A DNA stretch of 64,000 bases from an uncultured Acidobacteriota bacterium (GTDB lineage Bacteria; Acidobacteriota; Vicinamibacteria; Vicinamibacterales; CAVVIG01): positions 569,404 to 633,403 of the forward strand of contig CAVYRS010000002.1 in assembly GCA_963770995.1 (NCBI GenBank), given 5' to 3'. The notes below the pieces were generated by a model. That model was not told the origin of the DNA. It saw nothing but the letters and a program-made list of their open reading frames with translations, and did not search any database. Both the position numbers and the translations under genes were made by a program. Positions 33,682-49,547 of the stretch are shown here, piece by piece (the first letter of the stretch is position 1; the number at the start of each line of letters is the position of its first letter).

Positions 33682-33754
33682 AAGTTCGAAGTCAGAAGTC
33701 AGAAGTCAGAGGTCGTCGGCCGGCCCTGCCTTCTGACTTCATGCTTCTGACTTA
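33682..33754. repeat. Inverted heptamer array (GAAGTCA)n...(TGACTTC)n forming a hairpin after mtrB2; possible terminator
   Basis: GAAGTCAGAAGTCAGAAGTCAGAGG ... CCTTCTGACTTC..CTTCTGACTT. Confidence 0.7.
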
Positions 33755-35997
33755 CCAGAAGTAACTGAGCCTCGCCCAGAACGTGTTCGCCGAATACGGC
33801 CGATAGAAGTTCCCGAGCAGCATCAGCGAGGTCGTGCCGGTGGCCGGCGACGCCAGGCTCGCGGTCGGACCCAGCGCGAAATCGGTGACGTCGTACTTGT
33901 CGTACCAGTAGACCAGCCCGAGGGCCAGATGCTGCGTCACGAAGTAACGGCCGTCCACCGTGCCGCGCTGCAGCCGGTTGGTCACGGCCGGCAGCTGCAC
34001 CGGGCGTCGCGATCGTCGTGTTCGGCGCCAACCCGTAGACGTAGGTCGAATCGCCGTTGCTGTAGTCGTAGCCGACGCGCAGCTCGGTCCGCGGAATCAC
34101 CTTCAACAGATCCACCGACGCGTTCCAGGTGCGGACGTCGTCGGTGCTGTCGTTGGTCCAGTCGCGCCGCGGGTCGTTGAACTGCTGCGTCGGATCGCTG
34201 TTCGAGGCGCCGGCGGGCAGCGGATTGGCCGTCCGCGACGCCTGGAGCGCCGTGTACTTCTCGTAGCCGTAGGTCACGCCCATCGAGATCGAGTCGAGCG
34301 GCACGAAGTCGACGCCGAGCGAGTAGACGTTGTTGTCGTTGTTGCGCAGCCCGAAGTTGGTGCCCGGATACTCCTCGGTGCCGACGCCCGCCGAGGCGTT
34401 CACCGAGAACTGCGCGACGGGCATCACCTGCACGATCGCCCGGAAGCTGTCCTTGTTGCGATCGGAGATGTCGAAGTGCCGCAGCGACGGCTGCTCGCCG
34501 ATCGTCAGAGTCGAGCTGCTCGACGTCGAAGCCCGATCCGACGCGCTTGGACTGCTCGAAGATGCCCCGCACCGTGATCCAGCCGACGTTGGTCAGGTCG
34601 ACCGACACGCGGCCGGTGTCCTCGTCGCTCTTCTCGACATGCGATGGGATAGCCGTCGCCGGATTCGCGTCGTCGATGTCGAATCGGGTGTAGCCGCCGC
34701 GGAACGCCAGGTGCTTGAACGGCGTCACCGACGCGTCGCCGTCGAACGTGTGGCGCGTGAACCCGAGCAGCCGCTCGTGCTCGTTCTCGTGACCATCGCC
34801 GTGTCGTAGTTGACGACCTGGCCGACGAAGAACTCCGGCGAGCGGTTGTCGTAGGCGTACTGGCGATAGCGCGCGCTGAACCACAGATAGTTCGTCGGCG
34901 CCGACGTGAAGCCGTAGTTCATCGCGGTGACCCGCGCGGTCAGATCGGCGGTCGGCCGATCGAGGGCGATCGCCGGCAGCGCCGCGTTGCTGGTGAACGG
35001 CAGCAGCGGGGTGTTGTTGGTGACGTTGCCGAGCGAGACATAGCCGGTCGCCCGGCTGCGAGCCGGCAGCTTCACCGACGCCAGCACGGTGCCGCTGTTC
35101 ATCTCGGTGTCGGGCGCGCCGGCCAGCCGCCCGAACGCCGGCCCCGCCGTCGGCGAATCGGTGAGCCGCAGCGGGTTGCCGACGCTGATCGAGGGGAGAT
35201 CGTTGCGGAAGAACGAGCCGTCGTAGCGCGACCTTGACGAAGCCGTGCTGGTTCGCCCACTGCAGCGCCGCGCCGACGTCGGTGGTCCGGTGATCGACCG
35301 GCATCGCGAATTCGGTCGCGACGATGTTGCTGATGCCGAGGTGATCGCCCCACGGCTGCACGCCGTCTGCGGTGGGTGTTCTTGAACGTTACGCTGAAAT
35401 CGACGGTGTCCGTCGCGCTGTACAGTCAGATCGAAGCTGGCGATGTCGCGCTTCGAATCCATCTTGAACGAGCGAGGCCCCGCCGACCAGCGCCGGCAGC
35501 GTCGTCGTTCTGTCCTGCAGGCCGGACTGCACCGCGGTCGGTCAGCGCCAGGATGCCCGCGCCGGTCTGCGTGATAGAGCGTCCGCGTGTCCTGGTTGTA
35601 GAACAGCGGCATCTGGTTCCACTCGAACGTCGCCTTCACCTTGCCGTAGTTCGTGTACGACGCCGGAGAAGCGCTGATCGCGGTAGCCGAGGTGATCGGC
35701 CTGCGAGGTTGAACGGTAGCGTCGGTCTCCTTGAAGAGCCGGAACAGATCGAGCGTGCCGCCGTCGCGCACGTCGCGATAGCGCTGGAAGCGCGCCCGAT
35801 CCGAGCCGTCGCCGAACAACGTGCCGCGAATCCCGAAGTCGATCTGGTTGACGAGCGGAATATCCGACACGCTCGGCGACGCCGCGGTCTTCGGCGCGTC
35901 CTGGTCGGGCGGTGCGCCGCCCGCGATGTCCTGTGCGCGCGCGCTTGCGGCGACCAGCAGGAGCGCGGCAACCTGCGACAGAGAGTCTGGTGCGCAT
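33752..35997 (-). CDS. mtrB: MtrB/PioB-family outer-membrane porin, copy 2; multiple frameshifts
   Basis: IDFGIRGT..ARFQRYRD, PVDHRTT, NPLRLTD, YRQYAYDNRS, DPRRDW, YRPYSANTFWARLSYFW; AGGAGG RBS; follows a decaheme gene. Confidence 0.8.
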
Positions 35998-36014
35998 GCA
36001 CATCCTCCTGCCGG

Positions 36015-37012
36015 TTACCGAAGGAACATGTTGCCCGCCGGGTGATTCGACCCGTGGATCTGCGAGTGGCAGTTGACGCAGCTGCGTCCGACCACCCGGT
36101 TGCTCGCGGTCGCGAGCTGCGTGCCGTCGTAGATCGTCGCGGGGTGCCGGCTGGCTGACGTGGCACCGCTGGCAGAGCATCGGCTCCTTGGCGACCAGCA
36201 TGCGGTCGTTGTTCGAGCCGTGCGGATCGTGGCAGCTCGCGCAGTTCTCGCGCCCGGCGGCGTGCTCCCACAGGAACGGTCCGCGCTTCTCGGCGTGGCA
36301 GCTGGCGCACGTGTCGTTGACCGTGTTGCCGACCTTGAGCATCCGGACGTTGGTCGACCCGTGCGGCGTGTGGCAGATCGTGCAGTCCATCTTGCCCTCG
36401 CGCACCGGCATGTGGCCCGAACTTCTGGACCTTCATCGCCTCCTGCTTGTGGCAGGTCTGATGCACGGTCGGACGCGGTCACCGTCTTCAGCGCGGCCCG
36501 CGCCGATTTCGGGCTGTGGACACTGTGGCAGCTCACGCACGACACGTTGCGCGCGTCGTGCAGGCTCGCCCTGCCAGCGCGCATGGTCCGCACCCTTGGC
36601 GTGGCACGAAGACAGGCATGTTCGCGTTGCGCGCCTTGAGGGTCGCGAACCGGCGGATGTCCTCTTTCTTGCCTGAATCGACGTGCGCCTGGCCCGGCCC
36701 GTGACAGGTTTCGCACGCCTGTCCGGTTTTCGCGGCCGGGGTCCTGGTGTTTTGCGTCTTGCCGTGCAGCGTCTGATGGAGTCCCCTGGACGCCGTCTCG
36801 TGGCAGGTTGCGCAGGTCTCGTCGCCGACGATGCCCGTCGTCTGGGCGGGCGACGTCGGAGCCGGGGGCGACGCCGCGCTGTGGACTGCGGGTCCGTTCG
36901 CCTCGGACGCTGTGCGGGCGCTGGCGGCGGCCAGGCCGATCATCGCCGAGCAAACGAGAACGAGCGCGGTCACCAGCGGGCGTGCCGGAAAACCGTCACC
37001 GCGTGTGGGCAT
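36015..37012 (-). CDS. mtrA: DmsE/MtrA-family decaheme cytochrome c, copy 2; frameshifted
   Basis: VGDETCATCH, CETCHGPG, CVSCHSVH, MPVREGKMDCTICH, AEKRGPFLWEH, CQRCH, CVNCHSQIHGSNHP; 10 heme sites when the frames are joined. Confidence 0.85.
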
Positions 37013-37075
37013 GTCTCGATCTCCCTGTGAATGCCGCCGACAACCCGTCAAATTGGCGGGTCTGGCACCTGTCCA

Positions 37076-37091
37076 GGCAAGTGGGATGCCC
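37076..37091 (-). promoter_or_regulatory. Putative sigma-54 promoter for mtrAB copy 2
   Basis: GGGCATCCCACTTGCC; core differs by one base from the copy 1 promoter. Confidence 0.7.
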
Positions 37092-37102
37092 GGTGGGAGT
37101 CG

Positions 37103-37163
37103 GACTTCTGACTTCTGACTTCTGACTTCTGACTTCTAACTTCTAACTTCTGACTTCTAACTT
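37103..37163. repeat. Heptamer tandem repeat (RACTTCT) x8 immediately after the mtrB1 stop
   Basis: GACTTCT x5, AACTTCT x2, GACTTCT, partial AACTT. Confidence 0.9.
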
Positions 37164-48569: not shown

Positions 48570-48581
48570 GGCGAGCCTCTA

Positions 48582-48626
48582 ACAGTCGTCAGTTGTCAGT
48601 CGAGCCGACTGATGACTGACGACTGT
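48582..48626. repeat. 21-bp inverted repeat built from heptamer units
   Basis: ACAGTCGTCAGTTGTCAGTCG-agc-CGACTGATGACTGACGACTGT, two mismatches. Confidence 0.8.
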
Positions 48627-48639
48627 GCCTCGCCCGTGG

Positions 48640-48969
48640 CTACTTCTTGAAGGTGCCCAAGTACGCCACGAGCGCATCCACGTCGTCCTTCGGCAGCGTG
48701 TACGCCTTCATCTCCGGCTTACGCGTTGCCTTCGTCTTGACGGTCATGCCTTTCGCGTCGGTGATCCACGATCGGATCTCGTCGGCCGAGAGCTTCGTGC
48801 CGACGCCGTCGAGCGATCCCTTCGCGTTGCCCTTGCCGGCAATCGAATGACACAGGCTGCACTTCTGGTCCGTGTACAGCTGTTGCCCCTTTGCTACCTT
48901 CGCATCCTGCGCCGCCGCGATGGCCGCCGCGCCGATGCACAATCCGAGAGTCGCTCCCAGCAATCGCAT
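48640..48969 (-). CDS. Small periplasmic monoheme cytochrome c
   Basis: Signal peptide AAAQD, QKCSLCH, RKPEMK axial Met; GGAGG RBS. Confidence 0.9.
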   Translation of the reverse strand: MRLLGATLGLCIGAAAIAAAQDAKVAKGQQLYTDQKCSLCHSIAGKGNAKGSLDGVGTKLSADEIRSWITDAKGMTVKTKATRKPEMKAYTLPKDDVDALVAYLGTFKK

Positions 48970-48992
48970 GCTCTTTCCCTCCTCCAGATACC

Positions 48993-49328
48993 TTACTTCT
49001 TCTTGAGGGTCGCCATGTAGGCGACGAGTGCGTCGAGATCGGCTTTCGGCAGATCGTAATTCTTCATTTCCGGCTTTCGCGGCGCCTTCGTCTTCACCGT
49101 CATGCCCTTGGCGTCGACGATCCACGCGCGCAGTTCGTCGAGCGTGCGCATCGAGCCGACGTCGCCGAGCGGCCCCTTCTTGTTGCCCTTGTCGCCAATC
49201 GAATGACAGAGCGAGCATTTCTGTTCGACGTAGACCTGTGCGCCCCTCGTCACCTTGGCATCCTGTGCGGCGGCCGCCGCCGTCACCGTGGCCGTCAGGA
49301 CGAGCGCGCCGAGAATCGAGCGAGTCAC
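48993..49328 (-). CDS. Small periplasmic monoheme cytochrome c (tandem paralog)
   Basis: AAGGAGG plus GTG start, AAAQD, QKCSLCH, RKPEMK; highly similar to its neighbour. Confidence 0.88.
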   Translation of the reverse strand: MTRSILGALVLTATVTAAAAAQDAKVTRGAQVYVEQKCSLCHSIGDKGNKKGPLGDVGSMRTLDELRAWIVDAKGMTVKTKAPRKPEMKNYDLPKADLDALVAYMATLKKK

Positions 49329-49547
49329 TGCCGCCTCCTTGTCGGGCCGGCGGACGTACTGTCCGCCGGCGTCCTGTTCGAGAAAGCCGTCGTGCACGAG
49401 CGAGTCGAGCATGGCGATCGCATGGCGGGTCGACACATCCAGTTCCCGTGCGACCGTATCGGCCGACGCGTGCAGACCCGGCCGGGTGAGGAACTCGTTC
49501 CGGACCCGCAGCGCGTCGGCGTCGATCGGTTCGGCGATGGCGATCAT
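49325..49547 (-). CDS. Small winged-helix-like protein; reads in frame into the downstream cytochrome c as written
   Basis: LRVRNEFLTRPGL...VAREL...LDSLVHDGFL...GQYVR; paralog of 2877-3098; sigma-54 site TGGCACATGAGTTGCC at 49619-49634. Confidence 0.65.

Follow-up and report, generated by a model that had tools for sequence, protein, structure and literature searches.

Gene content of the locus

A 64-kb window of contig CAVYRS010000002.1 (856,579 bases; assembly GCA_963770995.1), from an uncultured Vicinamibacterales acidobacterium, carries 14 contiguous co-oriented genes (g02–g15; 33752–49547, minus strand throughout) for monoheme cytochromes c, homologues of the quinol oxidases CbcL and ImcH, an uptake [NiFe]-hydrogenase, and two modules of a decaheme cytochrome MtrA with a porin MtrB. 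Judged from the encoded proteins, we consider this a real trans-envelope electron-transfer gene cluster. The window is the whole 64-kb stretch that we analyzed; coordinates follow its numbering, and the genes of the locus, all on the minus strand, are described in the direction of transcription. Frames were found from third-position GC and stop-to-stop translations in this high-GC sequence, where the coding signal from 50056 to 33752 was wholly minus-strand and GC was even across the window (0.63–0.70). The original prediction of about 40 heme-c motifs agreed with our count of 37–39 CXXCH motifs and one CX3CH (g11). Intact genes contributed 29 of these CXXCH motifs (g02, 1; g03, 1; g04, 11; g10, 1; g11, 5; g12, 10), and g14 had eight that were readable after approximate frame correction, where 10 are expected. 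Placement in Vicinamibacteria, also predicted, was supported by HyaA, which is 79% identical to a homologue from a "Vicinamibacterales bacterium", and g11 is 81% identical to a homologue labelled "Acidobacteria bacterium". We saw no sign of a chimeric join, but no metagenome contig bridged the gene junctions: contigs from four runs were at most 759 bases long in the listed pieces and contained 0.10–0.12 of sampled words, which speaks neither for nor against chimerism.

Gene g11 (40432..41754; alternative upstream start 41805) encodes a NapC/NirT-like multiheme protein, which we confirmed as the predicted ImcH homologue by its architecture and by 41–42% identity to Geobacteraceae proteins. Since there is no family model for ImcH or CbcL, named Geobacteraceae genomes were searched directly; the references were Geobacter sp. 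AOG1, Geomonas and Trichlorobacter rather than strain PCA, and their proteins were recognized by architecture, not by annotated name. Exactly one match to g11 was obtained in each of Geobacter sp. AOG1, Geomonas paludis and Geomonas diazotrophica (three of the four genomes searched), spanning residues 4–439 of 440 with E values of about 1e-121 to 1e-123, and none in the Trichlorobacter thiogenes genome. The matching open reading frames (ORFs) read in AOG1 (517 aa) and G. paludis (508 aa) have three transmembrane helices followed by a CX3CH and six CXXCH motifs. In g11, three hydrophobic segments (residues 1–27, 28–55 and 80–104, from a crude Kyte-Doolittle window rather than a dedicated predictor) precede a CX3CH at residue 114 and CXXCH motifs at 139, 188, 295, 413 and 433, giving six heme motifs. 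The protein ends about 65 aa before the Geobacteraceae ImcH and lacks the last CXXCH. Compared with Geobacter sulfurreducens ImcH, it therefore shares the three transmembrane helices, the CX3CH by the membrane domain and the NrfH-like first hemes (TIGR03153, 51.6 bits; solved-chain match 2j7a_C), but differs in having six heme motifs instead of seven and no C-terminal ~65 aa. The published definition of the ImcH family is a CX3CH after the membrane domain followed by 5–9 CXXCH, which places the five CXXCH of g11 at the low end of the range; the same survey accepts homologues with fewer hemes as family members and gives 31.5–49% identity for non-Geobacter homologues, a range that brackets g11 (PMC6295460). 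The g11 family is very large, with 7977 proteins. ImcH and CbcL are described as quinol oxidases in Geobacter (PMC6295460; 10.1101/2021.04.15.440034), and 19 ImcH and two CbcL homologues have already been reported in the phylum Acidobacteria (PMC6295460).

The predicted CbcL-like protein was found as homology to both of its domains, but in two genes rather than one. The b-type half, g05 (46537..47370), is an FdnI/HydC-like dihaem cytochrome b of 277 aa with one match per Geobacteraceae genome (3/3; 48–53% identical by genome search and 49–52% by blastp, E 1e-80 to 1e-85). It aligned with residues ~340–580 of ORFs of 615–618 aa that have nine CXXCH in the N-terminal half and 5–6 transmembrane helices, which is the CbcL architecture. 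The c-type half, g04 (47367..48569), has 11 CXXCH, a signal peptide and one C-terminal transmembrane helix, and aligned with the N-terminal nine-heme domain and first transmembrane helix of the same proteins (28–32% identical, E 1e-21 to 1e-34), with 11 hemes versus nine in the Geobacteraceae CbcL-type proteins. The start of g05 overlaps the stop of g04 by 4 bases, and the two genes are separate in relatives as well, so the single polypeptide of CbcL is not seen here. General cytochrome b models scored below cut-off with g05 (TIGR01583, 35.6 bits; PF01292, 27.4 bits), and histidines, candidate ligands of two b hemes, are visible in the translation in its predicted helices 1, 2 and 4 and in the g04 anchor. 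Together, g04 and g05 are thus a CbcL homologue split after helix 1. In layout, an anchored multiheme protein with a separate cytochrome b resembles the two-subunit CbcBA; CbcBA and CbcL are reported to share no sequence homology (10.1101/2021.04.15.440034), and the sequence match of g04 and g05 is to the CbcL type, not to CbcBA.

Both predicted MtrAB modules could be identified, but the frames of the second open only once 17 corrections are made. The first begins with g12 (39361..40338), a periplasmic decaheme cytochrome of the MtrA/DmsE family (325 aa, 10 CXXCH) that scored 251.6 bits with TIGR03508 (cut-off 192.2) and matched 6r2q_A over its full length (E 1e-64), 6R2Q being the MtrCAB complex. 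Eleven bases after it starts g13 (37162..39349), which has one frame shift near 38291 and whose two halves, in different frames, align colinearly with TIGR03509 positions 31–309 and 311–662 (81.5 and 99.7 bits; cut-off 240.05) and with 6r2q_B (E 5e-7); with one base removed, it becomes an open frame of 728 aa. These matches indicate that g13 is a divergent porin of the MtrB/PioB type. The second module consists of g14 (36015..37012), an MtrA-like decaheme cytochrome with five single-base frame corrections, and g15 (33752..36014), an MtrB-like porin with 12, both without in-frame stops. The pieces of g14 scored 42.7 and 122.7 bits with TIGR03508, and those of g15 matched TIGR03509; in frameshift-aware alignments, g14 shared 236/351 residues with the MtrA of a relative (G008) and g15 shared 384/789 with the MtrB of another (G036). 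Searching the whole genome (84% marker-complete) for MtrC/OmcA with TIGR03507 gave a best score of 22.9 bits against a cut-off of 209.3.

A third MtrAB pair brings the genome total to three: on contig C3 (402860–407735), an intact MtrA (58–59% identical to g12) and MtrB (745 aa frame; 188.5 bits with TIGR03509) are encoded alongside a monoheme cytochrome c and another homologue of ImcH, 44% identical to g11.

The hydrogenase cassette lies between the CbcL and ImcH genes and comprises hyaA (g06, 45290..46444), hyaB (g07, 43587..45293), hyaC (g08, 42862..43590) and hyaD (g09, 42246..42878). All parts of the predicted hydrogenase with HyaC were thus recovered: a Tat-exported small subunit, a nickel-ligand large subunit, a cytochrome b and a protease. 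HyaA scored 427 bits with TIGR00391 (cut-off 179.5) and has a Tat signal (TIGR01409, 17.5 bits; cut-off 16.7) and a C-terminal membrane anchor. HyaB (568 aa) has N- and C-terminal CxxC nickel-binding motifs, as read from the translation; it scored 611 bits with NF007778 and 607 bits with NF007550, both below the equivalog cut-offs, and among solved structures its top match is 3myr_B (752 bits). HyaC, which is the cytochrome b of the hydrogenase and its quinone reductase, scored 151.5 bits with TIGR02125 (cut-off 121.5), and HyaD, the maturation endopeptidase, 126 bits with TIGR00072 (cut-off 47.45). Because of the Tat signal, the C-terminal anchor, the nickel-binding cysteines, HyaC and HyaD, we predict that g06–g09 encode a periplasm-facing, membrane-anchored, quinone-reducing uptake [NiFe]-hydrogenase. 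It shares these features with the HyaABC/HupSLC uptake hydrogenases and differs from them in its proximal iron-sulfur cluster: the HyaA motif is C-A-G-N, where the solved 1h2a_S and 8pou_S have C-T-G-C, so that asparagine replaces the second cysteine ligand and HyaA lacks the four-cysteine C-x-G-C form. The variant is clade-wide, C(A/C)GN being present in 17/18 fetched loci and in 119/120 of the closest database homologues, while a distant paralogue in G008 keeps CTGC. We know of no described group 1 hydrogenase clade with a C-x-G-N proximal motif.

Class I monoheme cytochromes c complete the set of 14 genes. Two of them, g02 (48993..49547; PF00034, 40.4 bits) and g03 (48640..48969; 109 aa with a signal peptide; PF00034, 45.5 bits), are paralogues (65–69% identical) at the start of the cluster, and the third, g10 (41954..42355; PF13442, 45.5 bits), follows hyaD. 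A g10-like cytochrome c gene stands after hyaD in 12/16 orthologous cassettes, which is a further difference from HyaABC/HupSLC.

Conservation of the conduit and recurrence of the hydrogenase beside it

Homologues of MtrA were present in 35/41 genomes of a sample of relatives (E ≤0.001) and in 166/301 genomes order-wide (E ≤1e-60). We fetched 20 loci around the best MtrA matches and mapped the window proteins onto them. The order mtrA-then-mtrB was seen in 19 of the 20, the remaining locus stopping at a contig edge. A contiguous g04-g05-g11-MtrA-MtrB cluster was present in five loci (G014, G032, G026, G025 and G008), and a g11 homologue adjoined MtrAB, directly or past one cytochrome c, in nine. 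Hydrogenase genes were found in none of these 20 loci, and neither was a tandem second MtrAB. The hybrid locus of the original prediction exists in this genome, and its cytochrome c/CbcL/ImcH/MtrAB core is conserved, but the combination is not ancestral, the core of the relatives being without hydrogenase. On this comparison, the conserved core comprises class I monoheme cytochromes c, a split CbcL, an ImcH-type quinol oxidase, and MtrA inside MtrB. Because g05 is directly followed by g11 in all five full clusters, hyaABCD-g10 is an insertion between CbcL and ImcH of this conserved cluster, to which one MtrAB pair was also added.

As to which pair came later, g14 is closest to the MtrA proteins of G019 and G008 (82–88% on the core) and g15 to the MtrB of G008 (56–65% on pieces), while the best order-wide identities of g12 are 66–70% (G096, G265 and G242), with 61–67% in G023 and G231, and the MtrB of G231 is 54–57% identical to g13. 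Because g14–g15 are closest to MtrAB of the G008 cluster and g12–g13 to other lineages, g14–g15 appear to be the pair that first belonged to the cluster and g12–g13 a later arrival.

The hydrogenase was then followed in its own right. A close HyaB orthologue (79–84% identical) was present in 22 other genomes of the 301, and 16 orthologous hydrogenase loci of 20 kb each were fetched and mapped. In eight of the 16, the cassette was near ImcH-like, CbcL-like or MtrAB genes, a count that rose to nine when the locus of G231 was extended. These linked loci show at least four arrangements (G023, G302, G231 and the genus g29) in three families besides the window's own. In G023, two cytochrome c-ImcH pairs directly precede the cassette, whose contig also carries MtrAB 24 kb downstream; G302 has MtrAB on the opposite strand, some 5–6 kb from the cassette; in G231, MtrAB of the g12/g13 type lies about 10 kb away; and in six genomes of one genus, which are kin and count as one event, g04-like and g05-like genes follow the cassette. 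HyaB and MtrA were within 25 kb of each other in 4/11 genomes with both places listed, against a chance expectation of about 1–3% for genomes of 5–6 Mb, which is our own rough estimate without a formal test, related genomes not being independent; six further genomes, for which no MtrA place was listed, are outside this count. Because the same hydrogenase clade recurs near ImcH, CbcL-like or MtrAB genes in 9/16 loci with differing arrangements, the gene linkage between hydrogenase and conduit suggests a functional association.

Proposed electron flow and comparison with known systems

The most likely chain, to which we give about an even chance on the basis of the encoded proteins, would run from H2 through HyaC, menaquinone, ImcH/CbcL, cytochromes c and MtrAB to an outside acceptor. 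H2 would be oxidized in the periplasm by the hydrogenase, HyaC would pass the electrons to the menaquinone pool, and menaquinol would be reoxidized by ImcH and/or CbcL. The monoheme cytochromes c would then ferry electrons across the periplasm to MtrAB, by which they would cross the outer membrane and reach an acceptor in dissolved or colloidal form, for example chelated Fe(III), Mn(III) or humic quinones. In Shewanella, MtrA inside MtrB forms the outer-membrane wire. A solid mineral would be a less likely acceptor than a soluble or colloidal one because no MtrC-type surface cytochrome was found in the genome.

Several observations weigh against this chain. No MtrC/OmcA family protein was found in the genome (best 22.9 bits), and the MtrB-like proteins scored below the NCBIfam cut-off (TIGR03509). 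Class I monoheme cytochromes are usually too high-potential to sit between ImcH and MtrA. Such cytochromes as periplasmic carriers, together with the absence of MtrC, are typical of the Mto/Pio iron-oxidation systems as published accounts present them, and Luteitalea, a relative in culture, is listed as aerobic (PMC5900883). In 7/16 loci, no ImcH-like, CbcL-like or MtrAB gene lay within 10 kb of the cassette, MtrAB stands without a neighboring hydrogenase in most relatives that have it, and coupling through a shared quinone pool would not be specific to this locus.

With no MtrC/OmcA, the conduit could therefore run inward as in Mto/Pio, a direction that we regard as unlikely. The donors to MtrAB would be reduced humics, other cells or Fe(II) in solution, the monoheme cytochromes would act like MtoD, and the CbcL/MtoC homologue would deliver to the quinone pool or an oxidase, leaving the hydrogenase as a second lithotrophic donor module in an "inorganic electron donor" island. 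Besides the missing MtrC/OmcA and the aerobic Luteitalea (PMC5900883), inward flow would fit the g02/g03-like class I monoheme cytochromes beside MtrAB in 12/20 relatives' loci, and also published reports that CbcL, MtoC and MtrH form one family found in Fe(II) oxidizers and Fe(III) reducers, with mtoC clustering with mtoAB (PMC6295460), and that PioA/PioB homologues are widespread in Acidobacteria (PMC10654088). In composition, the locus is like mtoAB-mtoD-mtoC/cymA of Sideroxydans and pioAB of Rhodopseudomonas, which the available descriptions give as an MtrC-less MtrAB pair with a class I monoheme cytochrome and a CbcL/MtoC-family protein (PMC6295460, PMC8805035). Unlike them, it also has ImcH and an uptake hydrogenase, and neither a RuBisCO large subunit nor a cbb3 CcoN was found in the genome, a weak negative at 84% completeness by markers. 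These absences count against inward flow, as do the lack of any MtoD-like match when g03 was compared with solved chains at E values up to 0.01 and the restriction of reported ImcH homologues, in the text of the 2018 survey, to Fe(III) reducers (PMC6295460). The quinone of the host is a further obstacle: in Acidobacteria it is menaquinone, to which electrons from Fe(II) would have to be driven uphill at a high cost.

The genes might instead be neighbors that are not used together, with the hydrogenase feeding general O2 or nitrate respiration through the quinone pool after a chance rearrangement, and with separate promoters in the gaps; this, too, seems improbable to us. Consistent with it are the absence of hydrogenase genes from all 20 relatives' MtrAB loci, the 7/16 orthologous cassettes without partners within 10 kb, the largest intergenic gaps of the cluster, which flank the cassette (92 bases before hyaA and 148–200 before g11), and the hyp maturation genes, which lie about 44 kb from the cassette. 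Against it, at least four different linked arrangements in three other families are far above our rough chance estimate, and all 14 genes share one strand, with several 4-base start/stop overlaps between them. A promoter and terminator scan returned no promoter-like sites and 11 terminator-like sites where 8.6 were expected, which is no excess and gave no usable operon boundaries.

Going beyond the outward chain from H2 to MtrAB itself, we tentatively propose that the abundant, nominally aerobic Vicinamibacterales of soil carry a dedicated module for H2-driven extracellular respiration, in which a clade of periplasmic C-x-G-N uptake hydrogenases, with a monoheme cytochrome c of its own, has become linked independently in several lineages to ImcH, split CbcL and MtrC-less MtrAB and here forms one 14-gene transcription unit; this is possible, although on balance we doubt it. 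If true, H2 would be used to reduce humic substances or chelated metals once oxygen runs out. Vicinamibacterales are among the commonest soil bacteria. Extracellular electron exchange may be routine in them, as MtrA in 166/301 genomes and the thousands of metagenome relatives of the ImcH-like protein suggest, and it is undescribed for the group in the literature searched. The linkage of hydrogenase and conduit offers a testable route from soil H2 to iron, manganese or humic reduction, and the locus provides a natural split CbcL, an ImcH beside MtrAB, and a clade of hydrogenases in which one iron-sulfur ligand is unusual.

Relative to Geobacter, the locus differs not only in the split of CbcL after the first transmembrane helix but also in placing both ImcH and CbcL next to MtrAB, whereas the 2018 survey saw no mtrAB or mtoAB beside imcH (PMC6295460). 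Relative to Shewanella MtrCAB, g12 and g13 align with the MtrA and MtrB chains of 6r2q and keep the mtrA-mtrB order, but MtrC/OmcA is missing from both cluster and genome, the quinol oxidase is ImcH/CbcL instead of CymA, and the carriers are monoheme cytochromes instead of the tetraheme CctA/FccA. Within the phylum, the Group 5 MtrCAB of Acidobacteriota and the EET1/EET2 clusters from peat likewise pair a porin with multiheme cytochromes (PMC8805035, 10.64898/2026.05.27.727921). As far as these sources describe them, Group 5 of the Acidobacteriia includes MtrC, and no quinol oxidase of the inner membrane is encoded near its mtrCAB genes (PMC8805035), whereas EET1/EET2 are presented as entirely divergent in sequence from Mtr; the peat study suggests H2 as an extra donor, with hydrogenases of groups 3c, 3d and 4e that, unlike here, lie outside the cluster (10.64898/2026.05.27.727921).

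Porin-cytochrome clusters and PioA/MtoA homologues in Acidobacteria have thus already been published (PMC8805035, 10.64898/2026.05.27.727921, PMC10654088), and all protein families of the cluster were known; what appears to be new is the combination. The view in the original prediction that no characterized locus has it held in the literature that we searched. Supplementary tables aside, the texts searched yielded no ImcH beside MtrAB, no conserved cluster of split CbcL, ImcH and MtrAB in Vicinamibacterales, and no uptake hydrogenase embedded in such a cluster; supplements that possibly list relatives are Table S3 of PMC6295460, with the 19 acidobacterial ImcH homologues, and those of PMC8805035.

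Frame shifts and flanking features

About 18 frame shifts lie in three genes of the cluster: one in g13, and five in g14 and 12 in g15 as placed by frameshift-aware alignment to intact relatives. In g14–g15, 15/17 of the events were +1 insertions, and there were no in-frame stops. Such shifts are not confined to the cluster: segmentation by GC3 frame gave ~1355 same-strand, stop-less frame switches in the 9.3-Mb genome, a crude measure whose false positives were not counted and which caught only four of the ~18 shifts in the cluster, so that the genome-wide figure is an underestimate. The switches are patchy, with none in 1216/1863 five-kb bins and at least four in 97 bins. Other genes are likewise split over 2–4 frames without stops, namely feoB (7744–10192), a P-type ATPase gene (27521–29640), and hypF (G000:C2:565587–567819), which lies 1.6 kb before the window. 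The assembly has only five contigs and yet a marker completeness of 84%. In the shifted genes, third-position GC was ~0.8–0.98 in most bins, and 8/10 heme motifs of g14 were intact. Metagenome contigs lacked one base at 38291 in three of the four runs (the fourth had no cover there) and one base at 36416–36423 in one contig each of three runs. The missing bases coincide with predicted shift sites, and removal of base 38291 in silico opened the 728-aa frame of g13.

Because of the genome-wide switches, the five contigs at 84% completeness, the other split genes, the intact codon bias and hemes, and the base-lacking contigs, the shifts in g13–g15 most likely reflect erroneous single-base insertions in a noisy assembly rather than gene decay. 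Two points weigh on the other side: the base-lacking contigs are 94–98% alike, contain 0.10–0.12 of sampled words, and could derive either from relatives or from the very sample that gave the window, and the shift sites lie outside homopolymer runs. A simple homopolymer-error model was dropped, as only 2/18 shift contexts had a run of at least 4 (background 0.15).

Alternatively, g14–g15 and possibly g13 could be genuine pseudogenes, a superfluous copy left to decay once a newer MtrAB pair had come in. This would fit the three MtrAB pairs of the genome, the 17 shifts within 3.3 kb next to 10 kb (g02–g12) without any, the sites outside homopolymers, and contig joints in three runs that skip ~33711–37100 with sides of only ~21 bases, but a heptamer repeat flanking both sides explains these joints, and the lack of in-frame stops, strong codon bias and retained hemes, the excess of +1 insertions, the same patchy pattern in FeoB, the ATPase, HypF and ~1355 genome sites, and the contigs without the base at 36416–36423 make decay quite unlikely. 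Many single-base insertion errors thus appear to be present, and pseudogene calls anywhere in this assembly need care.

The heptamer repeat (37100..37160, minus strand) is a tandem GTYAGAA array of at least eight units directly 3' of the g13 stop. Its units are GTCAGAA and GTTAGAA, and a shorter set of direct plus inverted units, capable of forming a hairpin, follows the g15 stop at ~33700–33750. There are 58 heptamer arrays of at least three units in the genome, and the repeat-bearing bin had a summed contig depth of 620–1097 in the metagenome runs.

Two gene ends call for comment. The hyaD frame is ~30 aa longer than its relatives, whose matches end at about residue 176–180, and overlaps g10 by 110 bases (42246–42355); a further assembly error, close to the true stop, may account for this overrun. 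The likely start of g02 is a GTG at 49328, preceded by an AAGGAGG ribosome-binding site. The 73-aa in-frame N-terminal extension upstream of it (49329–49547) looks coding (third-position GC 0.85), has a paralogue (45% identical) at 2898–3071 on the minus strand, directly 3' of a nine-heme cytochrome gene, and has weaker matches in two relatives' loci; a Pfam search of the extension gave no match. Either the extension is a small gene in its own right, its stop codon removed by an error of the assembly, or the periplasmic cytochrome carries a fused cytoplasmic domain.

Just upstream of the 14-gene range, g01 (49643..50056, minus strand) is a fifteenth co-oriented gene and encodes a small secreted protein of 137 aa with no match in Pfam or NCBIfam. 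Its family is Acidobacteriota-only, and the nearest Atlas clusters are all "hypothetical protein". Homologues stand beside the cluster in G014, preceding it as here, and before MtrA in G019, and a paralogue (40% identical) lies elsewhere on the contig. The cluster is followed immediately, on its own strand (31228–33538), by genes for a CBS-domain protein and two universal stress proteins, one of which has tandem domains. Some 30 kb away (3095–6100, minus strand), a row of genes encodes a Rieske iron-sulfur protein, a b6/petB-type cytochrome b of 359 aa, and the nine-heme cytochrome c, which has a C-terminal transmembrane helix; together they make up a bc-type complex with a multiheme c subunit.

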